DNA of 64,000 bases from a virus (IMGVR_UViG_3300028833_000053), one strand, 5' to 3'; numbered from the stretch's first letter, positions 2,119-63,366 are shown. A program made the numbers and translations. Notes: generated from the letters alone by a model not told the origin.

Positions 2119-2127
2119 TGGTAAATA
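2119..2127 (+). promoter_or_regulatory. TGGTAAATA late-promoter-like motif upstream of tagD
   Basis: Same 9-mer recurs just upstream of TAG-containing genes across the window. Confidence 0.65.
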
Positions 2128-2176
2128 TCAACAGGCTAAAAACGAGAAGAAAACCTGTATAAAAGGATAATGAAAT

Positions 2177-2584
2177 ATGAAAGAAAGCAAAAACGTCATA
2201 ACATACGGGACATTTGACTTGTTCCACGTTGGGCATCTCAGGCTTCTGAAAAGATGCAAGGAATTGTGCGGCCCAAATGGAAAGTTGACGGTTGTTGTCT
2301 CCTCTGACAGGTTCAATTGGGTGGAAAAGCAGAAGAAATGCGTCATTCCAGACTATCAGCGAATGGAAATAGTGGCCGCGATAAAATACGTTGACAAGGT
2401 TCTTCTTGAAGAGTCCTGGGAACAGAAGGAAAAAGACATCGTGGAAAACAACATAGACATCTTCGTTATGGGAAACGATTGGGAAGGGAAATTCGACAAC
2501 CTCAAGAAACTTTGCCAAGTTGTATACCTTCCAAGAACGGAGGGAATCTCATCATCGCAATTAAAATAGACAATCCATCAATGA
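2177..2584 (+). CDS. tagD: Glycerol-3-phosphate cytidylyltransferase (TAG at 2567 read through to TGA at 2582-2584)
   Basis: TYGTFDLFHVGH (HXGH) and RTEGISSS signature motifs. Confidence 0.9.
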
Positions 2585-2636
2585 TGTTGATCATACGAAC
2601 ATAAACTTGTCAATCTTCGGCAATTTTCCATTCATG

Positions 2637-3092
2637 TCAGATTCCCTTGTTTGCCCGTTTTGCTCCAGATACCCGTTCCAGATATTCTGAATATCCCTTC
2701 TTCCAGTTCTCCAATGGCTCGTCCTTGTGGCGGTTGTAGAACTCCATCATCCACCTTTTCGTCAGGTAAATCCTGTCATAGTGACGCAAAGGGTTTTCAA
2801 AATACGTTGACGGTGATAAATAGAAGTCACGTTCCTCAACACTCTCAATGTTGTGTTCAAGGTATCGGCGCTGCTCCCAGTATTTCATGTTTTCAATGAG
2901 TTTAGCCCCTAGTTGATACCCAGGACACCCACATCCACCTGTGTCGCCATACTGTCCGCCCTGCAATACATAATATCTGTCAGTGCGGATGTCCTCAAAC
3001 CAGTCATCCTGTTCCGCCGATTTGCCTATCAATGGCAATACCCCAATAGCGGCTATTGCGCCTATGAAATTCCGTCTTGTTGTCTTTTCCAT
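2637..3092 (-). CDS. Hypothetical protein with twin-arginine (Tat)-like signal; paralog of 3113-3544
   Basis: MEKTTRRNFIGAIAAIGVLPL; shared core DIRxDRYYxLxGGQYxDTGGxGCPG. Confidence 0.75.
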   Translation of the reverse strand: MEKTTRRNFIGAIAAIGVLPLIGKSAEQDDWFEDIRTDRYYVLQGGQYGDTGGCGCPGYQLGAKLIENMKYWEQRRYLEHNIESVEERDFYLSPSTYFENPLRHYDRIYLTKRWMMEFYNRHKDEPLENWKKGYSEYLERVSGAKRANKGI

Positions 3093-3112
3093 GTAAATCC
3101 CCTCGTAGGCAA

Positions 3113-3544
3113 TTATACTTTCTGGATGGACTTCAGATACTGGTCGTATTTCCTCTCCCAGTCCTCTTTCGTCTCGTTCTTGTGAAGGTTGTAGAACTTC
3201 ATGAGCCAATCTCGCTTCAACTGAATTTTACCAAACTGCTTCGCGTTGTCTGGACCGAAATACCCAGACACTTCAAGGTAGAAACCTTTGCCCTCAACAT
3301 TGTCTATCCATCTGTCAAGCATGTTGTAGCACTTCTGCAAATCCATTTCCTTGACAGTCCCAATTCCCAGTTCAACTCCAGGGCATCCAATTCCACCCGT
3401 ATCCTTGTATTGTCCGCCCTTGAGGATGTAGTATCGGTCAACGCGGATGTCCTGAAACTCGTCCTTCTTGGTTGCTGAACCAATGGCTGGCACTGCAATC
3501 ACGCCAACCAATGTCCCTATGAAATTCCTTCTTGTTGTCATCAT
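3113..3544 (-). CDS. Hypothetical protein with Tat-like signal; paralog of 2637-3092
   Basis: MMTTRRNFIGTLVGVIAVPAIGSA; AGGAG SD. Confidence 0.75.
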   Translation of the reverse strand: MMTTRRNFIGTLVGVIAVPAIGSATKKDEFQDIRVDRYYILKGGQYKDTGGIGCPGVELGIGTVKEMDLQKCYNMLDRWIDNVEGKGFYLEVSGYFGPDNAKQFGKIQLKRDWLMKFYNLHKNETKEDWERKYDQYLKSIQKV

Positions 3545-3578
3545 CTTGTGTAATCTCCTTGTAGGCAATTATATCCTA

Positions 3579-3767
3579 TTAGTGGATAAGCCTGTTGTAG
3601 TCGCTGTCTGAAAGATTGCTGAGCCAGTCTCTTGCTTCGTCTATCCGTCTCTGAAGTCCAGTTGGGATTGGCTTTCCCCGCCTCGTCAGCATTTCATGTT
3701 CAATCGCGGAAGACATCCAATTGTCGAATCCAGTATCAAAGTCATCGTTGGTTTTCTTCATTGGCAT
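3579..3767 (-). CDS. Small hypothetical protein
   Basis: ORF with AAGGAG SD in a tightly packed minus-strand array. Confidence 0.55.
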   Translation of the reverse strand: MPMKKTNDDFDTGFDNWMSSAIEHEMLTRRGKPIPTGLQRRIDEARDWLSNLSDSDYNRLIH

Positions 3768-3963: not shown

Positions 3964-3966
3964 ACA

Positions 3967-7507: not shown

Positions 7508-7732
7508 TCAGTTCTCCTTTGCCTTGTAGAATTTTCCATATAGGAAATCAGATGCAAAATACACAATCCCTGCAACAATGGTAAGCGGCCACACCACGCC
7601 AAAAAGGATGCAACGAAACGCATCCCCAATTTCAAATCGTTCCCATTTGACCCTCATGATGATGGCAGATATGATGGTGACGACAATTGGCATTACCGTG
7701 TACATCAATGTACTTAAGATATTGCTGTCCAT
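7508..7732 (-). CDS. Small two-TM membrane protein
   Basis: Two hydrophobic stretches; first gene after the promoter at 7764-7792. Confidence 0.65.
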   Translation of the reverse strand: MDSNILSTLMYTVMPIVVTIISAIIMRVKWERFEIGDAFRCILFGVVWPLTIVAGIVYFASDFLYGKFYKAKEN

Positions 7733-7763: not shown

Positions 7764-7792
7764 AGTATACCACATTTCGTGATCAAAGTCAA
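7764..7792 (-). promoter_or_regulatory. Sigma70-type early promoter
   Basis: TTGACT-17 nt-TATACT. Confidence 0.8.
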
Positions 7793-8976
7793 GTACCCTA
7801 CAAAAGAAATGATAAGCACCTTTTAAGTACATCTTCTGAATTCTCGTTCCAGTCTTTCTACCATACAACAAATACCTTATAACCGTATTCTGTTTCAATT
7901 GCCTTGTTCCTGGCTTCGTCCCATTGCCAAACATCTTTCGCTAATTTCGTTGTCTTCCCAGGCATGTGAATAATGCTATCTGACTCGTAAACCAGAGGAT
8001 TAGCGTGCCAATAGTCTCCGTTGAACTCAATTATCCTTCCGGTTGTCTCGTCAAAGAAATCAAAGAACACATATTTGTCAATCTCATGAAGATACTTACC
8101 GAACTCCTTGGGATGTCCATCAAACCAAACCTTATGTGAATTCAATTCTTCATTCTCCATCAGCTTGTTGAACAGTTCCATCGCAACATTGGATTGTCCG
8201 AACTGATTATAACGTTCGTTGTAGTATTCCTCATATTTCTGACGGCCCAATTCTTCTCCATATTTCCTAACAAAAGTAGCCAATGTCAGAGCTTTTCCCT
8301 TGCAGGCATTCTCATACACCTCTCGTCCTTTTTCTTCTCCATACTTGTTTATGAACCAATCCAAAGTCTCAAATCCAATATACTTGTCATGAAATTCCTT
8401 GTGCCGTTGTTTCCCTTCTTCTTCACCATACTTCATAATGAAATACTCAAGGGTGCGCTTTCCCCTCATCTGCTTACATCGTTTCTCGTATAACTCCTGA
8501 CCCTTTTCTTTCCCATATTTCCGAATCAGATTATCCAATGATAAACTCGCCCTACTTGCCTTATGTGCATTCCAGATACGCAAACCATCCGCTTTCCCAT
8601 ATTTTGCGATGCACTTTTCCAATGTCAGATAATGAGTCCTTTTCCCGTTTTCATCTGTGTGGTACTTATCCAAAGTAGCTTCGCGTTTCTCATTCTGCTC
8701 TTCCAATAACCCAACAGCAAACAAAGGTTCGTCAGGAAACTGCTTCTTGTAGTCCTGCATGGTCATATCATGCTTCTTCAGATGAGTATTGGAAATGTTT
8801 CTCAACTTCGCTCCACACACTTTGCAGTGGACAAATGTATGAGTCTTGTCATACACAATGCGTTTCTCCTCTTGGTCTTTCAACCATCTTTTCTAACACG
8901 CTGGTGAAAGTCTGATGTGAGAAGCCACACCTTTCTTGTCCTTACATTCCTTACCACAGTATTCACAGTGTTCCAT
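7789..8976 (-). CDS. Putative homing-type endonuclease: zinc fingers, KYGxxxG repeats and a Vsr/DUF559-like nuclease domain (3 in-frame TAG)
   Basis: Readthrough joins MEHCEYCGKEC...PAC*KRW to ORF 7858..8883 and continues FVVW*KDW to TGA at 7789; FDFFD...IIEFNGDYWH motif. Confidence 0.7.
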
Positions 8977-9063
8977 AATATAATCCTCTCGTCATATATT
9001 ATTTACACAGAAGGTTATGAAAAGTGCGAAGATTATTCACACCTTTCATAACCCTTATTGAAG

Positions 9064-10281
9064 TCAGTGGAAACAAGGACAATGCGCCGCAGTATCCATA
9101 TCCCTGAACTTCTGACCATCTTCCACCCAGAACTTCTGGAAGTTGAAGTCATCGGCCAAGAAGTTAAACCGCTTGAACCCGGGAAGGTGTTCACAGAAGG
9201 AACAGGTGCATCCCTCACCAAATGCGTTGATGTAGAAACTCAGCTTGAACCCCTCACACGGCTCGCAGTACTTCACCAGATAGGGCTTGCCACGTTCGCG
9301 GTAGTATTCCTGAACCATGCCACAAGAGCAGGAGTCAAAGCCATAGCCAATGCCAATCTTCTCGCAACGCTGAATCACGGTGTCAAGGGTCTCAAACGAG
9401 AGGGTGCAAGGCAGCTTGCTTGCACGTCCAACGGGTTTGCAGCGGAGGAACACGATGTTGCGCAGACCTGCCACCTTGCCACTCTCGATGTCGCCAAGCA
9501 CCTCTTCAACAAACGGAAGGTTTGCGTCGGAAAGCACGATGTGCATGTTGCAGAAATGGGGCGAACGCTCGTTGAACCTGTTGATGGTGTTGTAGCAGAG
9601 GTTCTTGTCGGTTTCATAGACGGACACCGCCACACGTCCACAGTACTTGAGGGTAGCCTCAAATATCTCGTCATTGAGATCTGCGCCAGAAAGGGTGTAG
9701 TTGGGAACGATGCCCATGTCCTCGCGCAGCCAACGGAGCATTTCCACGAAATCGGGATTGGTTTGGACGCCCGTGATGCCAATGGCAATCTGTCCAAGGT
9801 TGCGCGGGAACTTGCATACAACCTTCTGGAAGTCAGCCAGGGTTATGTTGGAGGCGGGCTTGTCGGAGTTGTTCTTGTAGCAGAACTTGCAATTCGCGCC
9901 ACCAACACGGGGGCAACCGTTTATGGAAATCTCGAAGTCAAGGATTTCGGGTCCAAGCGGACACCAAGTTGGGTCCGTCTCGGCGTCCTTGCCAAGCCTC
10001 GCGTTGAAGCCAGTGGTCTTGTTGAAAATCTGGAAGTAGTCAAGGTCCGTGTCATTCACCACGAACTTGGCCGATTCAGAATCCACAACAACCCAATGGC
10101 TGTTCTTGCCATCAACCACGATGTCGTACTCGTACACCTTGGCGTTGACCAGCTCGCTCGGCCTGATGTTCAAGAAAGCCTTTGCGTCCGGAATGGTCTT
10201 TGACGCGAAGCACTGCTTGATGTACTGGTTCACGCACTTTTGCGCGGCGGCCAAAGCCTTGTTGTTTTTGATTTCATCCAT
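9064..10281 (-). CDS. Radical SAM enzyme with CX7CX2C motif and C-terminal Cys-rich (SPASM/twitch-like) region
   Basis: CPRVGGANCKFCY; later FDSCSC, CEPCEG, CTCSFC, CPC. Confidence 0.8.
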   Translation of the reverse strand: MDEIKNNKALAAAQKCVNQYIKQCFASKTIPDAKAFLNIRPSELVNAKVYEYDIVVDGKNSHWVVVDSESAKFVVNDTDLDYFQIFNKTTGFNARLGKDAETDPTWCPLGPEILDFEISINGCPRVGGANCKFCYKNNSDKPASNITLADFQKVVCKFPRNLGQIAIGITGVQTNPDFVEMLRWLREDMGIVPNYTLSGADLNDEIFEATLKYCGRVAVSVYETDKNLCYNTINRFNERSPHFCNMHIVLSDANLPFVEEVLGDIESGKVAGLRNIVFLRCKPVGRASKLPCTLSFETLDTVIQRCEKIGIGYGFDSCSCGMVQEYYRERGKPYLVKYCEPCEGFKLSFYINAFGEGCTCSFCEHLPGFKRFNFLADDFNFQKFWVEDGQKFRDMDTAAHCPCFH

Positions 10282-10293: not shown

Positions 10294-10608
10294 TCAATTT
10301 TCACGCTTGAAAAATTCCCAGTTGTCGTTCCAGCAATCGCATTGGCAATACACCACCTGCGCATAGCCCTTGTTCAGCAGATTGTCCTTGAACTTGTCCC
10401 AATCCACGATTGTAGGTCCGTGGTCAAGGGTAGTCTCTTCGTCCTTGAACCACCCAATGCGCCTGCGCACCTGACCAAGGACATGCGCCCATGCCGCTTC
10501 CTTCGTCGGAAAGTGCCAATACTTCTCGTCCTCGATGTCACCGCGCCACCAATAGTGGATGACATATTTGTTGCGTTTGCGATTCCTCTGACGGTTGCTC
10601 ATTTTCAA
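10294..10608 (-). CDS. Hypothetical protein
   Basis: First ORF after the promoter at 10633-10661; AAGGAG SD. Confidence 0.6.
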   Translation of the reverse strand: MKMSNRQRNRKRNKYVIHYWWRGDIEDEKYWHFPTKEAAWAHVLGQVRRRIGWFKDEETTLDHGPTIVDWDKFKDNLLNKGYAQVVYCQCDCWNDNWEFFKREN

Positions 10609-10632: not shown

Positions 10633-10661
10633 AGTATATCATATCCGGGAGGGAAAGTCAA
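10633..10661 (-). promoter_or_regulatory. Sigma70-type early promoter
   Basis: TTGACT-17-TATACT. Confidence 0.8.
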
Positions 10662-15023: not shown

Positions 15024-15052
15024 AGTATATCATATACCGATGGGGAAGTCAA
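15024..15052 (-). promoter_or_regulatory. Sigma70-type early promoter
   Basis: TTGACT-17-TATACT. Confidence 0.8.
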
Positions 15053-15070: not shown

Positions 15071-16243
15071 TCACAGCCCCAAAGCCTCCACCAAACGAGA
15101 CGTGAGCATCTTGTCAACGTACTCCTGCGCAGAGCGCACCATAGACTCTTCCTTCTTGGTCTTCGCGTAGACTGAATCAAAGTAGGCGAACGCGAACCCG
15201 GAATACGGACGGATGGTGTTGATGGTGAACACCCACTTGGCGAAGTTCTTCTTGGTGATGGTGTCCCATTCCACCTCCATCAGCTTGTCAATGGCCTCCT
15301 TCACATCCTCCAGATCCTTTACATAGGCATCGTACTTTGCCTTTACCACGTCAAATGCAGCCTTGAACTGGGGGAAGTACACGATGTACTCCGACACCTC
15401 GTTGGCGCGGAGAATCTCCAACACGCGGGTCGGAGACCACACGCCATTGCCAGCCATGTAGTGAAGCTGGACGTAGCGCGGCGACTTCACCTTCACGCGG
15501 TTGAAGTTGGCATCCACCACCACGTATCCCTCCTCATCCTCGGGAAGAATCTTCGCCGCCTCAACGCACTGGTCAATGTTGTGGATGGGGTAGATCTTGG
15601 GCGTGTCGAAAATCTCCGCAAGGGGATGGTCGCCGAAGAACGTTTCCTTGCAAGAAACGTTGTCGCGGACGCCAATGAAGTTCATCTTCGTCTCTTCCCA
15701 ACGCACCACCACCTGATTCCAGGGGGACGTAAGCTCAAAGATGTAGGTGAACCCGGGGGCGAACAGACGGGGGAAGTCCTCCGCCTTGATGCCATAATAC
15801 TTGAAGCCCTCCATGACCAACTCGCCAAATGAGTTGAACGGACAACCCACGTTCTCGGGCAAGTTGCACTTGAAAGCGTCAATCACGCCATTCGTGGAAA
15901 TGAGGAAGTTTCCATCGAGGTTCACAATCTTGATGATGGAACCGTCCAGCTTCTGCGTCACATACGCCGTGCGCCAATCCACCTCGGCCATCCAAGGCTC
16001 TCCATAGTTGAAGAACTTGACGAAGGGGAATGAAACGATTTCCAGCGTATTGGCATCCAGAACCAACCCACGGCACTCCTTCACGATGTCAAGGGAGAAG
16101 TCGGAGCGAATCTGGTCGTACTTGAGCAGAATCAAGTCACGTCCAAACACGTTGTCACGCGAAATTGAAATGCAATAGGGCTCCGACGAGAGCAGGCACT
16201 CCCAATCGGAATTTCCACGGATGAACTCTTGAACTTTCAACAT
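15071..16243 (-). CDS. T4 Rnl1-like RNA ligase
   Basis: ECRGLVL, PFVKFFNYGE, motif I KLDGS, FELTSP, EGYVV, RVKVK. Confidence 0.85.
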   Translation of the reverse strand: MLKVQEFIRGNSDWECLLSSEPYCISISRDNVFGRDLILLKYDQIRSDFSLDIVKECRGLVLDANTLEIVSFPFVKFFNYGEPWMAEVDWRTAYVTQKLDGSIIKIVNLDGNFLISTNGVIDAFKCNLPENVGCPFNSFGELVMEGFKYYGIKAEDFPRLFAPGFTYIFELTSPWNQVVVRWEETKMNFIGVRDNVSCKETFFGDHPLAEIFDTPKIYPIHNIDQCVEAAKILPEDEEGYVVVDANFNRVKVKSPRYVQLHYMAGNGVWSPTRVLEILRANEVSEYIVYFPQFKAAFDVVKAKYDAYVKDLEDVKEAIDKLMEVEWDTITKKNFAKWVFTINTIRPYSGFAFAYFDSVYAKTKKEESMVRSAQEYVDKMLTSRLVEALGL

Positions 16244-16269: not shown

Positions 16270-16298
16270 AGTATACCAAAAACGGCCCCGGAAGTCAA
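16270..16298 (-). promoter_or_regulatory. Sigma70-type early promoter
   Basis: TTGACT-17-TATACT. Confidence 0.8.
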
Positions 16299-16627: not shown

Positions 16628-16846
16628 TCACTTCACTTTTCCCATGGAACCGATCTTGTCAACAATGGCGTTGGCTTCCGTGAAGATGGTTTCAATGCGG
16701 GCAAGCAGAACCTTCTTGGTTGGCTTCTTGATGAGGTTGCTGTTCTCAATGGCGTTTTTCACTTCAAGCAGGGGATCGTTGCACTTCCTGAAGTTGTTTG
16801 ACACCGTTTCATACAAGTCTGTGATGGTCTCTTTATCCATGGACAT
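16628..16846 (-). CDS. Small hypothetical protein
   Basis: AAGGA SD; TTTACC-17-TATAAT upstream. Confidence 0.55.
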   Translation of the reverse strand: MSMDKETITDLYETVSNNFRKCNDPLLEVKNAIENSNLIKKPTKKVLLARIETIFTEANAIVDKIGSMGKVK

Positions 16847-16899
16847 TTCCTTTTAGATTTCAATTGGGTTATGTTCAATTATACCACAATCACCGGAAA

Positions 16900-16908
16900 T
16901 GGTAAATA
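16900..16908 (+). promoter_or_regulatory. TGGTAAATA late-promoter-like motif
   Basis: 5 nt before the ATG of the LRR gene. Confidence 0.65.
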
Positions 16909-16913
16909 TCTTC

Positions 16914-17561
16914 ATGGCTAGTGAAACATATACATAGAACGCATCGAAGGACATTAACTTCAACCTCACGGAAAACACGTTTGAACGTGACTTGGAAGGA
17001 TTGGTGTTTGCGGGATGGAACAAGGACAGCCCCTGGACAAATGAAGTCCAATACACGGATTGTCAAGAAGTTCGCTTCTCCCAAAACACGAAGTTGTACG
17101 CGATTTGGAAAGAACCCGATTTCAACGTGGTGTACAAATTGCCAAATGAAACCGTTGTAAACTGGAGAAACTTCGAGGGTGGTACAATACCAAGCAAGTT
17201 CTTTAGTTCCTTGAATCCATCGGGAAACCCATTACCGGAAGTGGTCAAGATATATAATGGAGTTACAACCATCGCTGAACAATCGTTCTATGATTGCACC
17301 ACGTTGAAAAAAATTGCCATGGCACGTTGCGTAACAACCATAGGAAAAATGGCTTTTATGGGATGCGGCAAATTGACAGAGATGACAATACCAAGTTCGG
17401 TAACGTCCATAGGGCAAAACGCCTTTGGAAGCACAGGGATCAGAACCTTGACATTTGATGGTATGGACAAAGCAACTGTACAGGCTTTGCCAAACTACGG
17501 AAACTGGGGATTGGGTTCAGGATGCAAACTGAAATGCACGGATGGGGATTTAACCGTATAA
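16914..17561 (+). CDS. BspA-like leucine-rich repeat protein with InlB-B/Listeria-Bacteroides-repeat-like N-terminus (TAG at codon 8)
   Basis: MASETYT*NASK... in frame with ORF 16992..17561; FAGWN...LYAIW; repeats VTTIxxxAFxxCxxLxxxxIPxSVTSIG. Confidence 0.8.
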
Positions 17562-18166: not shown

Positions 18167-18227
18167 GATACTATATTTACCTTAGTTTTGGTAAATAATA
18201 TAAACAACCTTAAACTGGGAAACAAAA

Positions 18228-19737: not shown

Positions 19738-19775
19738 CACATAACAATTATACGCCAAAACCAATCAAATGTAAA

Positions 19776-28206: not shown

Positions 28207-28268
28207 TACAATTCACCCTTCATCTGTTATATGGGTATTTACCATTTATGACCACAAAGAAAACAAAG

Positions 28269-46631: not shown

Positions 46632-46775
46632 TTCAAGTACCTCTTCATTGAGCATTGTTTTCTCGTCAAATGCTCCTTTGCATAGTATTTACCATTCATT
46701 TCATTTTTTCAAAATCATAATCTATATCCTACTGATTGCCATTGACAGAATAAACAATTACATTAGTCATAATAT

Positions 46776-47315
46776 TCACCTCAAATCAATTATTGTAACT
46801 CCATCTTTATCCAGAACAGTCTATTCATACTCAAAGTCGTGCTGGAACCAACGCCCTGTTGTGAAATCAGTCATGGGAAAGAAATTAATAAGGCGAATCT
46901 GGTCAATTCCACGGTACAGATACTTGTAGAAGTTGTAAAGAAGAAATCCTGTTGTTGGATGCTTCATATGTGGATATTTGAACTGTGGATAGAAGTATGT
47001 CCCAAAATGATGGTCTAGGTTTATTATAATGTCATAATCGTCAAACAATTCCATTTCCTTTCCATACCACTCGTCCCGTGTGAAATACAAGCGTTTCTTG
47101 GGATTCTTAAAATCCTCCACAGGAAAATTCTTCACATTGAACTGCAGATTGTTGTCAAACAACTGAGTTGCGCAAAAAAGAACCTTCCTACATGGCGCAT
47201 CTTTGAACAACTCGTAATTTGTTGCGGTATTTATAAAAACAAGTTCATCGGACTTGTTCAGGTCTTGAATTGTTTTCGTGCATTTGATATTTGATAGTAT
47301 GTATGTCATTGTCAA
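46776..47315 (-). CDS. GT29/sialyltransferase-like protein (TAG at 46821)
   Basis: PTTGF resembles sialylmotif S; HDFEYE matches the HX4E VS motif. Confidence 0.45.
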
Positions 47316-48703
47316 ACCCCAAATTTCCTTTTTGCATCAATCAACATCCTTTTTACAATGGCTATGTTCTTGTTGACATAGAAATTGTTCTGAATTCTGT
47401 CTATGGCACATTTCCAATCATTCAAGTTCACGTCATTGCCAAGCATTTGATTAGCAATCTTCATGGAATCGTTTATGCCCTCTATGTTTCCAAACATGTC
47501 ATACAACTTGGTGTTGGTTGTCTTCCATGTCAACAAGCCTATGTCGTCCACGAAAAAATAGTTTGAAAATGGAAACATCATAAGGGCAAGATATGTCCTA
47601 ACCCCATATGACCTGTTTGACAAATTACCATGATAGAAATGGAACGTGTCAACATCTACAGAGCCAATTATACTCTTACCTGTTTGTACAGACATTTCAA
47701 GCATTTTCCTATGTACGTTTTTCCTTCCAAGAATGCTTACGGATATGTTCTTCGCACGCTGTTTGCTTTTTTCGTCAAGAATCTCATTGAAGAACAAGTT
47801 GTCTCCACCACCGTAAAAACATGTCCTGTTAAATCCACCAATGGTTTCAAGCGTGGACTTTGCTATGCAAAACGCCCCCCCAGGAACAGGGTTGTTGGAT
47901 TTCTGAACCTCATTCACAATGTCATAGGTTATGGTGTTCTTGTTGAGGGTTATCTATCCATTATCGTCCAAATACATTATTCTCCTGAATCCCTGTGTGA
48001 ATAATGATTTATCAAGTTCATCATACACCTTCTTGAACCAGTCGCAATCCCCAATTGGCGACGTGTCATAGTCCAGGAACATAATCTTCTCGTTTGCGGA
48101 AAGTTTCAATCCAATGTTCCAAAGACATTCTTTCTGAAATATGCTTTTGTTGTTTTTATTCCCACTTATTCTAATATACTATATGTCAGATGGAAAATCG
48201 CTTTGTGAAAACGCAGCATCATCGTCAATCACCAATTCAAGGAAGATTATTTGACTTGGCAAATGCTTCTGCATAAACCAATTTATGATTGCCTTGTTCA
48301 TGGCACTTTTCCTCAATTGGTTCACCGTGCCACCATGGTGGCACGTAATCAGTGTCATGTCAAGGTATTTATGGTTATGTTCAACGAACTGTGGATTATG
48401 AACTTTGTTCAAAACGGTCTTTGTATTCTCAGGCGTGAAAAGAATCACTTCATAGTTCTAATCATCTTTCAATGGATTCTTCCCATCCCAAATGAACTTG
48501 ACTTGCGGATTCTTCGCAACGTATTCAAGAAGTTCCTTTGGCAAATCAAATGTGCGTCTTGGATATTCAATCTACGATAACTTCAAGAAAACAAGGTCAG
48601 GTTTTACAGTGTGGGCAAAAATGGACTCCAACGTGGAAAGGATGTTTCCCTTTCCATTGTCGGATAGCTCAACAACTATTTTCTTCTTATTTTCCATTGT
48701 CAT
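47312..48703 (-). CDS. GT-A glycosyltransferase paralog 2 with extra N-terminal module (4 TAG)
   Basis: FQKECLWN...FLDYD...TQGF...GGGDNLF...HFYHG; N-terminal module resembles the start of the 44776 gene. Confidence 0.7.
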
Positions 48704-48706: not shown

Positions 48707-50224
48707 TTACCCAAACATAAACCTTCTGAATTCAATTTTACGCTCGCTCCTTTCAGGAACAAGATAATTATACGTTTTTTTGGTGCGTTCAACATTGCCA
48801 TTGAAGTGCAAGGCGTATTTATCCACCGCCCCATCCACATCCGACATGAATTTCACAAACCCCGGGGGACGTTTGGGACTTATTACCCTAATTCCCCTGT
48901 CATGGCATTGCTTCCCGAAAACCATTTCCACGTCATAGTTCTTGTCCAGTTCTTGCTATGTTACCCCGAACTTCATCAATGATGGAACAAACGCAGCTGC
49001 ACCGAGTCCAAAGCGGTAATGCGATACCGGCCAATCCGTGTAAATGTTCCGCACTCTATCTTCCGAAGAACCCTGTCTAAAATCCTTTGATGAGTGAATG
49101 AAATATGCAGCAACAACACCATCGCCATTCCGCTTGAAACAATCCAAAGTGTTCTAAACATAGTCCATTGGATAATCTATATCATCGTCACATATGAAAC
49201 AGTAATCTTCTTGAAGTTCAGGCTTGTTCAAGAACAAATACCTCCCATTTTCCCTCAAGTTCTTCTCCCCCAACGTCACATGCAACTTACCTTGGTCAAA
49301 TTTCTTCAATTCCTCGGGGATCTCCTTGTACTCATTCAACCACAAGTAGAAGTTGTCGCATTGTGGCAACAACCGCTCAATGCACTGAAGCATCCACTTC
49401 TTTCTGTACGGGAACGATGCCATCAAGATAGAAACCTTCCTGGGTTTCTTGTACATTGTTTTGTAGGGTTTGGACTTGTCAACCATATCTATTTTGAATT
49501 CATTTCTGTTTGAATAGGGAGCGTGTATGTAAACATGTCCATCCAATATCTTTATCCGGTATTTTCTTCTGGGAAGCAAGTTCAAGTTAAGGTAGTAGTT
49601 GAAATACGCCTCGTCATAGGTTGATGGTGTCTTGTATTGCCACGTCTCAAAATTGACTTTCTTTCTGTCTTGGTCTACAGAACCCTATATGAAATGCGAA
49701 ATGTCTGACAAGACATTTTTGCTTCCGATGAAATGACAGTTTTGAACATATTGGAATTCGGAGGTATTTATTCTGGAAATATCAACGGATGAGCCAACCT
49801 TGTTGCAGTACAGTCTATAAAAAGATGATTTGGGAAATGCACAATGGGAAAATACCACCAAATCCTATTCATTATCACCAACCAATTCAGACAAATACAC
49901 CGGCTTCAAACAACGTGCATTGGATTGAATGAAACAAAAATAGTCAAAGGAATACTTGTCCATGCAATCCAATATGTATTGAAACTTGTGAAGTTTGTTT
50001 TCAGGTATATTCCTGGTCTATTCTGAATTCACTTCAACGAAGTCAATGTTTTCCCCTCGGAACAACGTCAAAACTTCTTTGTTATCCGTATATACCACAA
50101 ACTGCCTATCACAATCCACAAGGTAATTTTTCTTCATAGAATAATACCAATCCACAACATTCTATGTGAAGTTGTATTTTGGATTCAAGAAATAACTGAA
50201 TACTATGACCTTTGGCTTGAGCAT
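48707..50224 (-). CDS. Two-domain glycosyltransferase: GT6-like plus GT2-like (6 TAG)
   Basis: Manual readthrough: FVVYTD, FDYFCFIQSNA, YVQNCHFIG, YDEAYFNYY; then ASFPYR...ICDDDIDYP; TGGTAAATA at 50233-50241. Confidence 0.65.
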
Positions 50225-50304
50225 GTTGCCTGTATTTACCATTCAACATTAAACGAACTGGCCGGTTCTTTCAAACCGGCCATCGTAGTTTCAATCCAAA
50301 CCCA

Positions 50305-54883: not shown

Positions 54884-54912
54884 AGTATACCAAAAACGGG
54901 TCAGGAAGTCAA
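54884..54912 (-). promoter_or_regulatory. Sigma70-type early promoter
   Basis: TTGACT-17-TATACT; leader identical to that at 31911-31942. Confidence 0.8.
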
Positions 54913-55999: not shown

Positions 56000-56821
56000 T
56001 CAAAACTGGGGAATGTCTGCGTTCAGCTTCGCCTTGGCTTCGTTCCTCTTCACCCAATCGGTGCAAATGCGCTCGGTAGGCGACTGGAACGTGGAATCAA
56101 CCTCGTGGAACTGGCAACCATCAACGGGGTGGAAGTGGCAGATGAACTTGCGAACCTTGGCATCTGGCTCAATGTAGCCACCCTTCTTCAGAATGCGCTC
56201 GTACATGGAAAGCTGAAGTCCATAGGTTGTGAACTCGCAATCGGGAAGGTCATCAACCGGAGAAAGGAACATCTGCCCCCACTCGTTGTCCTTGCGTATG
56301 CGCTTGTTGGTTTTCCAGTCCACAAGAAGGTACTCGCCAGTCTGCCTGTGCTTCCCAATGAGATCAACGGTACCCGCCACGTTGATGCTTGGGTCAAAGA
56401 TGATTTTCTCGGACTCGAAATCGTAGGGGCGTTCTTTCATCTTGCGCACCACGGCAATGATTTGCTGGAACACGGTCTTCTGATCGTCCGTGAACGTGGA
56501 ATCATCGACGAACTCGCCATTGAAAATGCGCTCGGCGACGGAGTGCATCTTGATTCCGTGGTTGCAAGCCTTTTTGGAAATGTTCGCCCAACGCTTCTTC
56601 ATTTCCTCCTGCGTCACGCCCTCGCGCTGGGCGCATAGAGCAGACATTCCCTCAAGGTCAAAGGGCTTCTGGTACTTGTGTATGAGCGTTGTCACGCTGA
56701 TGGGCTTGTACTTCAACCTCTGGTCTCCGTCAAACACCTTGTAGACGTGTCCAGCCTCGCTGAACTCCACCTTCAATCCATTGTAGTTTACTATTGACTT
56801 CTTTTCCGAACTTACTGCCAT
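56000..56821 (-). CDS. PD-(D/E)XK nuclease (Cas4/RecB-like exonuclease)
   Basis: SVTTLI, GIKMH, E...AGTVDLI...LVDWKT...QLSMY. Confidence 0.85.
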   Translation of the reverse strand: MAVSSEKKSIVNYNGLKVEFSEAGHVYKVFDGDQRLKYKPISVTTLIHKYQKPFDLEGMSALCAQREGVTQEEMKKRWANISKKACNHGIKMHSVAERIFNGEFVDDSTFTDDQKTVFQQIIAVVRKMKERPYDFESEKIIFDPSINVAGTVDLIGKHRQTGEYLLVDWKTNKRIRKDNEWGQMFLSPVDDLPDCEFTTYGLQLSMYERILKKGGYIEPDAKVRKFICHFHPVDGCQFHEVDSTFQSPTERICTDWVKRNEAKAKLNADIPQF

Positions 56822-56839: not shown

Positions 56840-57544
56840 TTAATACTTCAATCTATGATACTTGTCTGGATTGATGCCAAACTTCAAGAGGGTTTCCCTT
56901 GCCTCGCGGTTGGTTTCGTGGCACTCGTTCATGGAACGCTCCACTGATTCAAGTTGGGTGCGGTTGTAGTCAAGGTTCTTTGCGATGGCGTTCTTGCGGG
57001 ATTTTATGATTCCCTTGTCGTCCTCAATCTCCTGCACGAACTTCCCAACGCGATTCAACATCATATCAACTTCCGCGGCGTCCTTAAAGTTGTGAATCTT
57101 GTCGGGAAACGCCGCTGCCACGGCCAACTCACACCCAAGAGACTCCATGAACTTCAGGGCTTTCGTGTTGAGGCACAACTCCTTGCTTGGATTCAAGAGA
57201 TTCGTACAATCGCAGACCAATCCCCTGAAGAAGATATGTCCGCTGCGCTCCACAATCTGATAGTCATATCCCGCGCCATCCACAAACGCCCTGATGATTT
57301 GGGGAGAGATTGGGACAATCTCCGGACGCATAACGTCAATGAACTTGCGGAAGAACTTCAACTCCACAAGAACATCAGAAGGATCCTTTTTGGACTGGTA
57401 GACTATAAAGCAAGCCTTGAACCGCGTGTTGATGTTCTTCACCTCCACGCCATAACGCTTCTCCGTGAACCACGCACCCCGCTTGTAGTCGGGGATCTCA
57501 ATGGCACCGGCCCGGTCAACCTTTATCTTTACCAAGTTCAACAT
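56840..57544 (-). CDS. Hypothetical protein with C-terminal coiled coil
   Basis: AGGAG SD; 234 aa. Confidence 0.65.
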   Translation of the reverse strand: MLNLVKIKVDRAGAIEIPDYKRGAWFTEKRYGVEVKNINTRFKACFIVYQSKKDPSDVLVELKFFRKFIDVMRPEIVPISPQIIRAFVDGAGYDYQIVERSGHIFFRGLVCDCTNLLNPSKELCLNTKALKFMESLGCELAVAAAFPDKIHNFKDAAEVDMMLNRVGKFVQEIEDDKGIIKSRKNAIAKNLDYNRTQLESVERSMNECHETNREARETLLKFGINPDKYHRLKY

Positions 57545-57593: not shown

Positions 57594-58298
57594 TTACAGC
57601 ACAACCTCTATGCCATACTTCTGGCTCAAGGTGTTCATGGCGTCCGCCGCGTCGTCGCATATGTCCTGCAAGTCAGTCTCGCAACTCGCCAAATCGTCCT
57701 GACCCTTCTTCACCAACTTCAAGATGTCATTCCGTTGCTTATCAAAATACTTATCGCGTATCTGCCACTCAGTAGTGTGGAAATCGTCAAAGGCGTTCCA
57801 AGCGGTCTCCGCATCGTCCATGCTCTTCACCCCTGGGTACTTCTCCGCTATGGCAATGAGCCTCCCGGTCTCCGAAACCAAAAACGCTGGAAGGGTGGAT
57901 GCGATGGTGTCAAGGTTTATGCCCCAAACCTGCGTTTTGATGTGCGCCATGGAAAACTTGAACAGAACCCTATCGTCTTTGACAATGACTTCGGCCTTGT
58001 CCGTCCAACTATGGCCAAACCACCATTCGCCTTTCTCCGTCTTGAACAACCGATTGAAAGTTGAGGGGCTTACGGGAGTCCAAATGGTGTTGTTGTCCTC
58101 AACCCCACTGTGGAAGATCTCAAACACGACATCATGCTTTCCAAGATGGGCGGCAACGATGAACGAAAGCATGATGGAGTCCCTTCCATGCACCAGATGG
58201 ATGCGCCTGTTGTACTTGTACAAACGTGTCCTATGGTCGGGAATCTCAGCCGTTTTCAGGCAAGCAAAGTGTTCAATTATCCATTTCCTGTATGCCAT
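57594..58298 (-). CDS. Hypothetical protein with C-terminal coiled coil
   Basis: AGGAG SD; first gene after the promoter at 58331-58359. Confidence 0.65.
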   Translation of the reverse strand: MAYRKWIIEHFACLKTAEIPDHRTRLYKYNRRIHLVHGRDSIMLSFIVAAHLGKHDVVFEIFHSGVEDNNTIWTPVSPSTFNRLFKTEKGEWWFGHSWTDKAEVIVKDDRVLFKFSMAHIKTQVWGINLDTIASTLPAFLVSETGRLIAIAEKYPGVKSMDDAETAWNAFDDFHTTEWQIRDKYFDKQRNDILKLVKKGQDDLASCETDLQDICDDAADAMNTLSQKYGIEVVL

Positions 58299-58330: not shown

Positions 58331-58359
58331 AGTATACCATAAATGGGATGTAAAGTCAA
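58331..58359 (-). promoter_or_regulatory. Sigma70-type early promoter
   Basis: TTGACT-17-TATACT. Confidence 0.8.
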
Positions 58360-58367: not shown

Positions 58368-59165
58368 TCAATCAAACTTCACGGCAAACTCATCAGTGAG
58401 TTTCTTTTTCATTTTATCAGTAAGGGGAATCGGATGGGCAAAATGTAGATTCCCAGTTCCATTCTACTGAACCATATAAGTACCCTAATGACGAAAGTAC
58501 AAATATCCATCCTCACGTGGAATGTCAATATATGTAATTTTCCCATATCGTCCCATCTGTTGCATAGTCTTGGTGTGATTGCAAAACAGTGGACACAATT
58601 TATACCGATATTTTATTTTATGCGTATTAATAATTGATGATTGAAATATTGAATGATGTCCTCCCGTTTTCTATCTATTCCCCCAATATCTAGCCAATAA
58701 CGGTCCATTATTTCCATACGCAAATTTATATCCACTATTATATCCGCATAAAACTATGTCGGAATCCGAATTGGCTTCCAGCACGTCCCTTGTGTCCTGA
58801 ACTGAAAACTTGTTCGCAAAATCATCATCGTCTATTCTGGATAAAATGACAATATCATTTTGCTTCCAAACATTCAACATATAGTTTTCCATACACTTAT
58901 CGTGTGGCATAAACCTATACTGAAAGTTCAATTTTTGTTCTTCAAATTTTTGCTGCAATTCATATAAACGTGTGACCTTCCATTCAGGGTTGATTAGGAT
59001 CATCAACTCAAAATCCAAATTGGTTTGGTTGTTCAAAGAAGGTATTAAATTTGACATCAAATAACCAATGCGTCTCTATATCAAATTTTCATCCATCAAA
59101 TCCATACCAACACCCATATCCTACGATAATAAACGTGTCTATACTATATGCTTTATTTTATCCAT
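58368..59165 (-). CDS. Putative rhamnosyltransferase-like GT-A protein (about 6 TAG)
   Basis: MDKIKHIV*TRL...LIPSLNNQTNLDF...SRIDDDD; ends TGA at 58368. Confidence 0.65.
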
Positions 59166-59167
59166 TT

Positions 59168-60292
59168 TTAATTTTCCCTAATAGCGTAATTGTTTGCCAA
59201 CTAGCATATCCCCTAAACCCATTCATATTTTGTCAATGGATTCTACTGGTGTGAACGTATCATTTTCCACAACTACCCACTAAAATTATTATAATTCACA
59301 TGTGATTGAACCAGCATTGCCGCCCGTTCTTTTTCATTATTTACATTGGGTAATTCTTCCATAGCCTGGGCAAACCAATGTTCCTTGTCGGTCCATGACA
59401 AAAGCCCCTTGGAATCCTCGCACATTATCTTGTCCAAAACTGGATATTGGGTTGCCAGCAAAATTTGGCGTTGGATGTAGGAACGTCCTTTGCGGTCACC
59501 ATGAAAGAAATGGTTTATCTCAACACCAACGTCCTTCAAGATTGGCTTTTCCAATTTCCCTGACAATCCTTCTGCAATTTTCCTGACTTCATCGCGTGAA
59601 AACACTATGAACCAAGGTTGATCTTGCCTTGCACCATACAACTCGTTCCAGAACAAACTGTCACCGCCACCAAGAGGAAGATAGTTGAAACCCCCTATTG
59701 CATCTACAAATGTCTTTGACGTACAAAACACCATTCCAGGAACGTTCTATTGAACATCTATCGTCCTTCCATTCACGATGCAACTTGTAAACGACTCTCT
59801 ATCAACCGAATCGGGTATTCTATTATTGTCCTAGTCCAAATAATGAACGGTGTGAAAACCCTGAGTAAACAGGCAGTGGTCAAGAGCGTCACTTACCTTG
59901 CTGAACCAATCAACATCCTCCAATGGAGACATATCAGAGTCTATGAACATGAGTTTTTCATTCTTCGCCATTTTTGCGGCCATGTTCCACAGATGTTCCT
60001 TCTGGAAAAGATACTTGTTGGAATCATTGCCATCTATGCGTATGTATTTCATCTATGACGGCAAGTCGGACTTGTTGAATGTGAAAACGCCATTAAACCC
60101 CAATTCAAGGAACATCATTTCATTTGGCAAATGAGACTGTTCCATCCAATGAGATATGGCGTTCAACGTTGCCACTTTGCGGGACTTATTATGCACGGCG
60201 TCATAGAAACAACTGATGGCTGTCATATCCACCAACTAGTTGTTTTTTCTACGAAACCCGGATGCCGTCTTTGGAAGTCCAATGAATATCAT
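59168..60292 (-). CDS. GT-A glycosyltransferase paralog 3 (about 8 TAG)
   Basis: FQKEHLWN...FIDSD...TQGF...GGGDSLF...HFFHG; ends TAA at 59168. Confidence 0.7.
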
Positions 60293-60315: not shown

Positions 60316-60852
60316 TCAGTACCACGGGTGGTAGAAAACCACATAGTCATCGTCCCAACGGTCCAATGCCTCCTTGAAAGCCCCGCCATAGCCGTCGGCG
60401 ACAATCATTTCCAACCCCGCCTTGCTGAAAAAGATTTCAACAAGATTATCGTTGTTGGGATCGCCATAGTTCTGTATGATGTAGTTGTGCAAGCCCCATT
60501 CCTTGCGCCAATAGCCAATCTCCTCCAACTCATCATCCTTCTCATTCAACCCAAAATCCTCTATGTTGAAGATAGGTTCATAGTTTGAATTCAACTTAAG
60601 CCCATGCTTCTTCGCAAGGCGGCGGTAGGCTCGGCGCATGTTGCGAACCCCATTTTTCTGCTCCTTGGTGTATGACTTCCAGTCACAATAGCCGAACTCG
60701 TTCCTGGGCAAAGACGACATCAACTCTTTCCACTTGGGCTTCTCCCTGAGGGTTTTTCCCTCCTCGATGAAGGCCGCCCGGATCTTGTCGAATTTCTCAA
60801 CAGCTTCCATCCGCCTCTTTGAAGTGCGGAATAGATATTGGTCAAGTCCCAT
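60316..60852 (-). CDS. Hypothetical phage protein (MGLDQYL...YWRK)
   Basis: First gene after the promoter at 60884-60912. Confidence 0.7.
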   Translation of the reverse strand: MGLDQYLFRTSKRRMEAVEKFDKIRAAFIEEGKTLREKPKWKELMSSLPRNEFGYCDWKSYTKEQKNGVRNMRRAYRRLAKKHGLKLNSNYEPIFNIEDFGLNEKDDELEEIGYWRKEWGLHNYIIQNYGDPNNDNLVEIFFSKAGLEMIVADGYGGAFKEALDRWDDDYVVFYHPWY

Positions 60853-60883
60853 AACTTCTCCTATTAGGTTCAGATACCTATAC

Positions 60884-60912
60884 AGTATACCAGATTTGGG
60901 ACGGAAAGTCAA
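60884..60912 (-). promoter_or_regulatory. Sigma70-type early promoter
   Basis: TTGACT-17-TATACT. Confidence 0.8.
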
Positions 60913-60918
60913 GTACCC

Positions 60919-62403
60919 TCATGAAAAATTGGAATGGGTGTGAACAACGTCAAAAATGTCCTTCCCCTTGTCGGAGCCAATGACGCGCAAGAGGATTTCG
61001 TTTATCTCGTCTCTGTACTTCTCGGGAAACTTTATGTTCTCCATCATCTTTCCGGAGTTCTTCTTCTTGACTATGCAGGATGGTTCAAGTTGCTGCATCT
61101 CATTGGCAATCTCCAACAGGCGGATTCTGTCCTGTCCCCTAATCTTGTTGAAGAACGTTGGCATATCGTCAAGCATACCCTTCTGGTACGTTATCTCCCC
61201 ATCGTATAGCCTCCAATGCCAATAGCAGAAACTTGAATTCAAAAAACAATATGCAAGGTCTCGCGTTTCCTCATCCTTGAACAGAATGATTCGCTTGCCA
61301 GACCTATACAAATCGGAGACATATCCAACAGTGAAGTAGCGGCAAGTTGTGGCGAAGTTGATGTAGTAGTCCCCATCTTCGTCTATGAAGTCCTTGAACG
61401 TTTCATTCTCGGAAAACTTCCGCCACCTCTGCAAAGTCTCTTCAAGTTGGGGAAAGCACTTGGCGTATCTATCTTCCCTGGGTCTCTGGGGAATGTTGCC
61501 AACCATGCTTTCCAAGAACTCGGGTTGAAGCACCTTGTCCCGCTCCCCATTCCTGAAACGAACCATCCCGGCTATGCGCAGTCCAATGCCCCAATTGCGG
61601 TTGTCCGTCACCAAAATGGCTGGACGTACCTGGTTTTGCGTGTTGGAGTTGAACACGCCATGCTTCCTCCCATTGAATATCTGACCAGGCGTGTTGTCAA
61701 ATGGAATGATGAAACCAGAATATCCCGAACTCAATTTCTTGCGCAGCAACTTGAACTTCTCGCGTCCCAAATAGTTTTGAGGTGTGAGAAGCACAGTCCC
61801 TTTGCATCCGCTCTCACATAGAATTTTCTCCATCATCGCGGCATAGAGTTCATGCGTCTCCTGCACTATCATTGTCTCCCACCAACTTTTCGGAACCTCT
61901 TCAACCTTGGCATAAGGTGGATTGGAAATCACCTTGCAGTCAACAGGAAGGTTCACGTTTTCGTCAAGAAAGTCGCCGGGCCTTGAATGAATGTACCCCA
62001 CAACGTCGTCACCATATATCTTGCCAATGGCATTGACGCAAATATAGAGGGCAAGGGCATCTTTGTCATAAAGCCACAACCTCCCAGACCTTATGAGTTC
62101 CCTCGCTTGTTCTCTTCCAATCAACTTCAAGTACGCCAATATGAGATTCCCAACGCCGCAACACACATCGCAAACGTTCTTGCCGGGAAGTTTGTCAAAC
62201 CATTTCGCCATGAGAGTTGCAACGTCATCCGGTGTGAAATACTTGCCCAAGGACTTCTTGCTGTACTTGTTGACGTGCGCAAGCCCAATCTCGTAAAGTT
62301 CCCAGTATTTTTCAACAGGGACATCCGACTTCAAGATGATGTCCCATGCTGCGTCAAAGCCAAATTCGTCTATGGCGTTCAAGTATGTTTCCACGTTTTC
62401 CAT
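60919..62403 (-). CDS. N6-adenine DNA methyltransferase
   Basis: GKYFTP, motif I DVCCGVG, motif IV SNPPY. Confidence 0.85.
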   Translation of the reverse strand: MENVETYLNAIDEFGFDAAWDIILKSDVPVEKYWELYEIGLAHVNKYSKKSLGKYFTPDDVATLMAKWFDKLPGKNVCDVCCGVGNLILAYLKLIGREQARELIRSGRLWLYDKDALALYICVNAIGKIYGDDVVGYIHSRPGDFLDENVNLPVDCKVISNPPYAKVEEVPKSWWETMIVQETHELYAAMMEKILCESGCKGTVLLTPQNYLGREKFKLLRKKLSSGYSGFIIPFDNTPGQIFNGRKHGVFNSNTQNQVRPAILVTDNRNWGIGLRIAGMVRFRNGERDKVLQPEFLESMVGNIPQRPREDRYAKCFPQLEETLQRWRKFSENETFKDFIDEDGDYYINFATTCRYFTVGYVSDLYRSGKRIILFKDEETRDLAYCFLNSSFCYWHWRLYDGEITYQKGMLDDMPTFFNKIRGQDRIRLLEIANEMQQLEPSCIVKKKNSGKMMENIKFPEKYRDEINEILLRVIGSDKGKDIFDVVHTHSNFS

Positions 62404-62461
62404 CACGGTCAATTATACCTTGGCGAATGGTAAATACTCGAAACACCAATGGGACAATGAA

Positions 62462-63055
62462 ATGGCTGAACATACATATACTAGATTCGTTTTTGACAAT
62501 GAAACGCATGAGGACTGTGAAATAACAGGAACATTGGATTAGCAGTGGTTCATAGACAAAGGTTGGTTCAGCGAAGATGAATTGGAATGGCACGTCACAT
62601 TCATTGAGATTGACATCGGAAGCACTGTTGAAAACATTGGGGACGGTGCCCTTGCCGAACAAATCGCCCTGGGGAAAATACATATACCCGATACGGTGAA
62701 GAGCATTGGAAATGGAACATTCTATGGATGCACCAAATTGGCAAACGAAGATGGATTTGTCATTGTCAGAGACTGGCTATACGATTACCGCAACGATGGC
62801 ACAAAAATAAGAATTCCCGGCAATGTCACAAACATTGGAGAGGGGGCTTTCAACTGGTGTGAAACGATTGAAGAAGTTTTCATACCCAACAACGTGAAAT
62901 ACATTGGAGAACGTGTCTTTGACGGTTGCGACAAACTTATGTGCGTGAATACGGAAAAAACCAAGGCTGAAATCCAGTCCATGAACTATCCTATTTGGGA
63001 TCTTTACCCTGGTTGCGTCATACATTGTCAAGATGGTGACATAATCATAGAATAA
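62462..63055 (+). CDS. BspA-like leucine-rich repeat protein (TAG at 62540)
   Basis: MAEHTYTRF...GTLD*QWF in frame with ORF 62582..63055; IPDTVKSIGNGTFYGC repeats; TGGTAAATA at 62428-62436. Confidence 0.85.
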
Positions 63056-63084
63056 GCCTGTCCCTTCTTTCAAGTATAATTGAA

Positions 63085-63354
63085 ATGAAAGGACAGCGCA
63101 ACATGACTGTACTCACGATATATACCAACAAATTTGATTCAAGGGAAAGCGTATTTGGAACCGGGATGTCCGGCAAGGTGTTTTTGGAAGAGGCGAATGG
63201 AAATAGCGAATCCGGACAGGAATTCAGAACAATTGACGAAGCTTTGGACTTCTGCGAAAACAAGAAAACAAAAATTGACGGAATAGAATTCATGTACTTA
63301 TCCAATGACGGAACACAGAAGTTTGCAAAGTTCGGAACGTCGAAGGAATGGTAA
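63085..63354 (+). CDS. Small hypothetical protein
   Basis: ORF following the LRR gene. Confidence 0.55.
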   Translation: MKGQRNMTVLTIYTNKFDSRESVFGTGMSGKVFLEEANGNSESGQEFRTIDEALDFCENKKTKIDGIEFMYLSNDGTQKFAKFGTSKEW

Positions 63355-63366
63355 ATAGAAACTGTC

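Follow-up and report, generated by a model that had tools for sequence, protein, structure and literature searches.

The window analysed here is a stretch of 64,000 nucleotides (nt) that corresponds to the minus strand of positions 201268-265267 of a 433,895-bp IMG/VR virus record (IMGVR_UViG_3300028833_000053), and its subject is the distribution of in-frame TAG codons among genes that stand behind different promoter motifs. The record carries direct terminal repeats and is rated 100% complete, and its source is a complete T4-like giant phage (∼434 kb) that reads TAG as glutamine. The T4-type markers of the genome comprise a gp23-like capsid protein, a T4-type terminase, a baseplate protein, a portal, a sheath, a baseplate wedge and a gp55-type late sigma factor. 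The host is probably an anaerobic bacterium of the gut or rumen. Genes were called with a custom procedure, in which open reading frames (ORFs) bounded by TAA or TGA were scored by codon-usage log-odds with TAG kept neutral and were then chosen greedily; 512 genes covering 90% of the genome were obtained. With TAG read through, many fragments merged into long frames, one of which (32261-42331, minus strand) has 3356 residues, 12 in-frame TAGs and no family match.

Two promoter motifs stood out in the window. TTGACW-N17-TATACT (hereafter E) was present in 9 copies, all on the minus strand, against 0 expected, and the late motif TGGTAAATA in 11 copies against 0.24 expected; they numbered 27 and 60 genome-wide, where nearly all copies of both were followed, 5-60 nt downstream, by a start codon on their own strand. 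All E promoters carry an extended -10 element (TGnTATACT) and are followed by a conserved leader ending in an AAGGAG ribosome-binding site, within a near-identical cassette of ∼70 nt that is repeated 27 times. Judged by these elements, the E promoters are of the sigma70 type, close to consensus and extended at the -10. A k-mer survey of intergenic DNA revealed a second host-type class, GTATAATT, with 67 copies, of which 16 had TTTACA at -35 and the others had no -35, as well as TGTAAATA, with 45 copies, which has the core GTAAATA in common with TGGTAAATA. Both TGTAAATA and CGTAAATA are late-motif variants, and a further variant, GCGTAAATA, heads the capsid operon. The two-motif scheme of the preliminary description was therefore incomplete, although both of its motifs were real: at least four motif classes are present. 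In standard-code ORF lists, the genes of the late class were fragmented and those of the early class intact.

A gene took its class from the closest motif upstream of it, up to a distance of 160 nt; where there was none, it inherited the class of the adjoining same-strand gene before it. A TAG was counted as internal when 25 or more codons with a positive coding score came after it. Internal TAG was found in 0/26 direct genes of the E class, 8/59 of GTATAATT, 11/32 of TGTAAATA and 28/48 of TGGTAAATA; in whole units the corresponding counts were 4/149, 22/167, 17/64 and 46/83 genes, with 0.4, 1.1, 1.4 and 3.0 TAG per 1000 codons, respectively. Genome-wide, the difference between E and TGGTAAATA was significant by the Fisher test for direct genes (p = 1e-7) and for whole units (p = 5e-21), it persisted within gene-length bins, and shuffling of the class labels among transcription units gave p = 5e-5. 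Genome-wide, TAG was thus not independent of promoter class, the outcome that would have refuted the proposal, and the promoter-class pattern that had been proposed is confirmed, including the absence of in-frame TAG from the genes directly behind TTGACW-17-TATACT.

After correction of starts lying upstream of their promoter, 94 genes with internal TAG remained, of which 49 belonged to TGGTAAATA, 20 to TGTAAATA, 20 to GTATAATT and 3 to E, with 2 unassigned. The statement that most TAG-containing genes follow TGGTAAATA held narrowly for the exact 9-mer (52%) and more broadly for the core GTAAATA (74%). When the classes were pooled by core, TAG was found in 70/174 genes of GTAAATA units and in 22/306 of sigma70-type units (p = 4e-18), and within the window alone in 3/51 E-unit genes and 10/15 TGGTAAATA-unit genes (p = 3e-6). 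One of the four initial E-class exceptions proved to be a start-codon error, with the promoter inside the ORF, and two were the glycosyltransferase cassette described below. Out of frame, TAG differed by no more than 2-fold between the classes, whereas the in-frame contrast was ∼7-fold or more; base composition is therefore not the cause of the gap.

The stop codons were also considered. The calling procedure closes all 512 genes with TAA or TGA, and a plausible terminal TAG was rare among them; within the E class a terminal TAG was possible in at most 3/149 genes, the remaining stops being TGA (112) and TAA (34). Because TAG is avoided both as a sense codon and as a stop, the E genes are neutral to the code, and the TAG-free genes behind host-type promoters read identically under the host and the phage codes, as would be expected of genes that have to be decoded alike before and after the onset of suppression. 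A description of the E genes as plain standard-code genes was rejected, since TAG is avoided as a stop too.

The gene content of the classes differed, the host-type promoters serving takeover and accessory functions among others. E units hold a T4-type RNA ligase, a NADAR/kinase protein, an N6-methyltransferase, NAD-salvage enzymes, a NAD-dependent ligase and a sigma70-family sigma factor, together with many small genes without an assigned product. PolB, NrdD, DnaB-like and DEAD helicases, a RecA-like protein, a chaperonin and methylases were found in GTATAATT units, along with a second sigma-like protein, the tRNA array, the CUA tRNA and gp55. The two sigma70-family sigma factors (PHROG_351; L023:15521-16285 and L020:8807-9868, both minus strand) are TAG-free, one standing directly behind an E promoter and the other in a GTATAATT unit, and they may redirect the host polymerase to the GTATAATT promoters that have no -35. 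Genome-wide, TGGTAAATA units encode the sheath, baseplate wedge, portal, tape-measure-like and tail proteins, and in the window a Stealth-like protein, a UDP-glucose dehydrogenase-like protein and further glycan enzymes. The assignment of structural and glycan genes to the late TAG class was accordingly upheld for the virion and glycan units behind TGGTAAATA but not for the glycosyltransferase cassette, which has no TGGTAAATA. The largest late proteins of the window (3356, 1083, 561, 505 and 463 residues) had no Pfam or PHROGs match and are only putatively ‘structural’. The gp23-like major capsid gene (535 residues) and the preceding gene (348 residues) are TAG-free behind GCGTAAATA (window-frame 216439-219134; locus L056, genome 46269-47474, minus strand), which suggests an avoidance of TAG in genes that need the highest output.

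The nine E promoters of the window (TTGACW-N17-TGnTATACT), all on the minus strand, precede TAG-free genes throughout. They are located at 7764-7792 (gene 7508-7705), 10633-10661 (genes 10294-10602 and 9064-10281), 15024-15052 (a unit from 14967 down to 10687), 16270-16298 (the T4-type RNA ligase gene, 15071-16243), 31937-31965 (gene 31069-31905), 32198-32226 (gene 31985-32164), 54884-54912 (15 small genes, 54850 down to 50305), 58331-58359 (genes 57594-58298, 56840-57544 and 56000-56821) and 60884-60912 (gene 60316-60810). The last of these genes is followed after 23 nt, with no terminator between, by the glycosyltransferase cassette (58368-60292, minus strand), the exception in the window. 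It consists of two genes with 4 and 8 TAGs, one of them rhamnosyltransferase-like, and it has the highest TAG density in the window, no late motif, and a TATAAT 6 nt before the ATG at 60292. The only delay visible for this cassette would be one imposed at translation. GTATAATT promoters also lie in the window, for example two on the minus strand: one (TGTGGTATAATT) at 16877-16884, upstream of the TAG-free gene 16628-16846, which represents the third motif class, and one with TTTACA at -35 (N17) at 19746-19753, upstream of a tRNA-Arg(UCU) gene (19523-19611, minus strand). This tRNA gene stands alone, far from the 35-tRNA array, and its length of 89 nt points to a long extra arm.

On the plus strand, late motifs were found at 2119-2127, before a cytidylyltransferase-like gene (2177-2584) with TAG at codon 131/135; at 16900-16908, 5 nt before the ATG of the near-leaderless gene 16914-17561; at 18189-18197, before gene 18228-18854 with TAG at codon 65; at 42397-42405, before gene 42474-43148 with TAG 3 codons from its end; at 62428-62436, before gene 62462-63055; and at 63349-63357, 9 nt before the ATG at 63367 of a TAG-free late gene that runs past the window end. 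On the minus strand, the motif at 28236-28244 heads 26521-28206 (3 TAGs), 23248-26499 (4 TAGs), 22749-23246 (TAG-free) and 21156-22733; that at 42362-42370 heads the 3356-residue gene and stands back to back with the plus-strand motif at 42397; those at 44802-44810 and 46686-46694 precede the Stealth-like gene 43151-44776 (2 TAGs) and the UDP-glucose dehydrogenase-like gene 45873-46655 (1 TAG) with 44792-45850 (4 TAGs), respectively; and that at 50233-50241, 8 nt before the ATG at 50224, heads 48707-50224 (6 TAGs) and 47312-48703 (4 TAGs). The TGTAAATA variant at 9000-9007 (minus strand) precedes gene 7789-8883 with TAG at codon 342, which is a sense codon rather than a stop because the PHROG_22677 match extends past it; the 3' end of this gene (minus strand) overlaps the next gene's E promoter at 7764-7792 (minus strand).

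Several features of promoter arrangement were observed in addition. Late motifs are often paired back to back and divergent (TATTTACCA ... TGGTAAATA), 15-35 nt apart, serving both strands (window 42362-42405; window-frame 180892/180907, 184630/184645 and 235230/235251). A composite, GTATAATTGTAAATAG, in which a host-type -10 box overlaps a late box, occurs at 30364-30378 (minus strand) of the window and in four further genome copies, and it is a candidate for a possible dual-timing promoter. Many TGGTAAATA and GTATAATT promoters are only 5-10 nt from the ATG (window 16900-16916, 50224-50241 and 63349-63369, and genome-wide), so that a sizeable set of mRNAs is predicted to be leaderless or nearly so; the E-class genes, unlike these, have a conserved leader of ∼25-30 nt with AAGGAG. 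Three small plus-strand late genes (16914-17561, 18228-18854 and 62462-63055) have a PHROG_35892/18805 domain in common with a late protein of 1793 residues (L019:9903-15284), and each of the three has an early TAG and a TGGTAAATA of its own.

The position of TAG within late genes was biased towards the start. TAG made up ∼9% of the glutamine codons of late genes overall, and 17.7% in the first 30 codons against 7.8% elsewhere (2.3-fold, p = 8.5e-5), and the excess was also found in genes whose start is pinned by the promoter (p = 0.003). A mere ramp of A/T-rich codons was rejected as its explanation, since the share of CAA among CAA and CAG rose too little, from 46% to 55%, in the first 30 codons. 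Many early TAGs come after the first ATG downstream of the promoter, without a nearby alternative start. The early TAGs that had been listed for individual genes were recovered at codon 8 (16914), 21 (50224, the first of six), 19 (60292) and 27 (62462); for 22733, TAG lies at codon 15 if the Shine-Dalgarno-bearing ATG at 22733 is the start, and for 59165 TAGs lie at codons 9 and 15 of a gene with an uncertain start.

The meaning of TAG was examined by alignment with a 414-kb relative, whose orthologs average 68% identity to those of the phage. With TAG-TAG pairs excluded, TAG stood opposite glutamine in 20/41 cases in one direction and 20/52 in the other, the next partners being lysine (10) in one direction and glutamate or lysine (6 each) in the other. 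CAA, separated from TAG by two substitutions, accounts for 11 of the glutamine partners, and family matches extend across TAGs in gp55, the portal and PHROG_22677. By these alignments, TAG is read as glutamine. Only 7/48 aligned TAG sites are common to the two genomes, and the presence of TAG per gene is concordant between orthologs (odds ratio 21, p = 4e-14); because sites turn over while gene-level presence agrees, TAG carriage is a property of the gene or its expression class rather than of inherited sites. The promoter-class pattern was replicated in the relative, where TAG was carried by 40/74 genes of TGGTAAATA units and by 12/227 genes of GTATAATT units. The relative has TTTACA-N17-TATAAT instead of the TTGACW...TATACT cassette, which is thus lineage-specific, and it contains orthologs of 49/149 E-class genes (33%) against 48/83 TGGTAAATA-unit genes.

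A putative suppressor of TAG, the tRNA(CUA), is encoded at genome positions 410487-410576 and was the one with a CUA anticodon among the 36 tRNAs that ARAGORN gave for the whole genome. Its cloverleaf includes U1:A72, CCA and a long variable arm, and a GTATAATT placed immediately after a terminator hairpin precedes it by 54 nt. Rfam gave only a sub-threshold tRNA-Sec-like match at this locus and no ribozyme. No ‘code-change module’ is visible beyond the tRNA(CUA). For the 414-kb relative, no CUA tRNA was found by ARAGORN, by blastn with the phage suppressor or by a scan for canonical T-loops; a looser scan revealed one intergenic 75-nt CUA tRNA-like gene (positions 297906-297980, minus strand) with U1:A72, CCA and a GTATAATT 31 nt upstream, which ARAGORN misses because its T-loop is non-canonical.

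The late motif was then compared with that of T4. Late promoters of the T4 family consist of an 8-bp -10 box with no -35, number ∼50 in T4, and vary at -13/-12 in Aeh1 (PMC2988020). The phage element is likewise a single -10-type box of 8-9 bp with the core TAAATA, upstream of virion genes and with no conserved -35 in the logo; its form [G/T]GTAAATA matches the T4 late promoter TATAAATA at 6/8 positions and, on this match, is probably a variant of it. The density of late sites is similar as well, with ∼105-128 sites in 434 kb against 50 in T4. Unlike T4, which has TA at -13/-12, the phage has GG or TG, and many of its late starts lie so close to the box that leaderless mRNAs are suggested. Late transcription in T4 depends on gp55, gp33 and the gp45 clamp (PMC2988020; 7d7c, 7d7d), and the phage likewise encodes a gp55 homolog (window-frame 90336-90980, minus strand, 26 kb past the window end), which matches PHROG_234 ‘late sigma transcription factor’ (2e-21) and T4 gp55 7d7c_F (1.8e-5) and which probably recognises [G/T]GTAAATA.

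The gp55 homolog itself contains TAGs, at codons 24, 127 and 149, and TAG 127 stands opposite a conserved glutamine of T4 gp55. Unlike T4 gp55, it has an N-terminal extension of ∼31 residues that contains the TAG cluster. At least one TAG was found in codons 24-33 in 6/6 genes when the homolog was aligned with five IMG/VR orthologs; the sites shift among codons 24, 25, 26, 30 and 33, alternating with glutamine, and roughly 11/20 glutamine-type sites of this segment are TAG (hand count from the alignment). In all six genes GTATAATT lies 94-103 nt upstream. The N-terminus was judged to be coding, because the first 40 codons show 10 synonymous differences against 8 non-synonymous ones and because the ATG, which has an AGGAAA ribosome-binding site, is conserved.

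The best reading of these results, and one that we regard as probable, is a cascade in which TAG-free units behind host-type promoters come before suppressor-dependent late genes. Host RNA polymerase would transcribe the TAG-free early and middle units together with the suppressor tRNA and the gp55 mRNA; gp55 would stay incomplete until the suppressor reads the TAG at codon 24; promoters of the gp55 type would then fire; and many late mRNAs would need the suppressor again. The code switch would thus be needed twice, as in a feed-forward gate. Within this cascade, we infer the timing, the reading of the late motif by gp55 and a selection of the TAGs that goes beyond tolerance. The interpretation given in the preliminary description was supported in every prediction accessible to sequence analysis: the early class has the near-consensus sigma70 promoter with its extended -10, the late class has a T4-type motif and is accompanied by a gp55 homolog, and the CUA tRNA stands behind a host-type promoter. 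That the TAG cluster in gp55 codons 24-33 is a selected translational gate, so that late transcription waits for the suppressor tRNA, is a more tentative proposal, plausible but short of an even chance; the most telling gate may lie in the late sigma gene and its TAGs, not in the structural genes.

A number of points weigh against the cascade. About half of the late-unit genes are TAG-free, including the gp23-like major capsid gene, so the translational lock is only partial, and it is largely redundant for late genes because these are already held back transcriptionally. TAG is also present in ∼20 GTATAATT-unit genes, including the terminase, which has a late motif too, and an LRR protein. The long variable arm of the suppressor tRNA is unusual for a tRNA-Gln, and searches of the genome for a release factor (PF00472) and for GlnRS/GluRS (PF00749) gave no match. 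The gp45 clamp domains PF09116 and PF02916 had no match in the genome either, in a search to which the control genomes barely responded (PF09116 none, PF02916 one below the cut-off). The gene calls and the operon assignment are home-made, with terminators ignored and some starts wrong; the early and late labels follow from promoter homology only; and all compared genomes are of one lineage, so that replication in the relatives is not independent.

The main rival explanation is that CAG-to-TAG changes (C to T) were purged from genes needed before the suppressor and drifted neutrally in those expressed later, the pattern being a by-product of timing without a regulatory role. Such passive tolerance fits the turnover of sites, with only 7/48 in common with the relative, and the TAG-free late genes: any TAG is present in 40-55% of late-unit genes, about half have none (the capsid gene among them), and TAG stays below 10% of the glutamine codons even there. 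Transcriptional control of the gp55 type would, moreover, already delay the late genes. It fits less well with three other observations. The 2.3-fold enrichment of TAG in the first 30 codons exceeds the general A/T ramp, all six gp55 orthologs keep a TAG in codons 24-33 despite the turnover of sites, and the TAG-dense glycosyltransferase cassette lies so close behind an early gene, with no terminator, that only translation could delay it. We consider this explanation unlikely, though it deserves to be taken seriously.

Much less credence is given to a foreign origin, in which the TTGACW...TATACT cassettes would be mobile units, like the PeSL (promoter-early stem-loop) cassettes of T4-type phages, that imported standard-code accessory genes, TAG-free by ancestry. 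The near-identity of the ∼70-nt cassette over 27 copies, its absence from the 414-kb relative, the lower share of E-class genes with an ortholog there than of TGGTAAATA-unit genes (49/149 and 48/83) and the existence of described PeSL cassettes (PMC2839356, PMC4122927) are all in keeping with it. It is made very improbable by the vertically inherited GTATAATT replication genes (PolB, NrdD, DnaB and RecA), which are TAG-free as well, by the E-gene orthologs of the relative, which are mostly behind TATAAT-type promoters, a TAG-poor class, and by the avoidance of TAG as a stop in E-class genes (at most 3/149). Among standard-code genes, a TAG stop is normally commoner than this. The least credible explanation, which we regard as hardly tenable, is that the custom gene calls, through ORFs inflated by readthrough, or the regional composition created the pattern. 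At least one ‘early gene with TAG’ was indeed a start-codon error, and late genes are more A/T-rich, with CAA at 50% against 30% and TAG in frame +1 at 8.8 against 4.6 per 1000 codons. The fragmentation of late but not early genes is, however, already seen with standard-code ORFs, family matches run across TAGs in gp55, the portal and PHROG_22677, the in-frame contrast (∼7-fold or more) exceeds that out of frame (at most 2-fold), and the result survives the re-assignment of starts and the second genome.

The cascade was compared with recoding in other phages. Late-biased recoding, proposed to delay late genes, has been published (Borges et al., bioRxiv 10.1101/2021.08.26.457843), in a text without mention of promoters, and TAG-to-glutamine ‘code 15’ phages comprise crAss-like, Lak, Garnet, Amethyst, Agate and Topaz clades (10.1101/2021.08.26.457843; Yutin et al., PMC7886860; Peters et al., PMC9523058). 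A literature search found no mapping of recoding onto promoter classes. Like the code-15 phages, the present phage has in-frame TAG as glutamine, a phage tRNA(CUA), recoded structural genes, a proposed delay of late genes and code-change machinery compatible with the standard code. Unlike those listed, it belongs to a T4-like lineage of ∼434 kb in which no release factor or synthetase gene was found, its early/late split is legible from explicit promoter motifs, and its late sigma gene itself carries conserved N-terminal TAGs, which would couple the transcriptional and the code switches. The E cassette in turn is similar to the PeSL cassettes known from such T4-type phages (Arbiol et al. 2010, PMC2839356; Comeau et al. 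2014, PMC4122927) in its repeated sigma70 early promoter and in flanking small, poorly conserved accessory genes in variable regions, the likeness being confined to the promoter portion and the genes. It differs from PeSL in that its conserved portion extends downstream into a leader with a ribosome-binding site, and this PeSL-like cassette is missing from the 414-kb relative.

In earlier proposals of a delay through recoding, ‘early’ and ‘late’ were assigned from gene function, whereas here they are marked by explicit promoter motifs, and because the late sigma gene itself carries TAGs, the idea of such a delay becomes legible from the promoter map. Since homology links one of the motifs to a known late sigma factor, the hypothesis yields concrete predictions that can be tested, on the timing of individual mRNAs and on their need for the suppressor among others. 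A rule for annotation also follows: behind GTAAATA, TAG should be read through, and behind TTGAC/TATAAT, genes neither containing nor ending in TAG are to be expected. Gating by TAG in this phage would span the genome (94 genes) and would include a transcription factor. If the gate is true, the genetic code, and not a protein cascade alone, would set the early-to-late switch of a T4-like phage.

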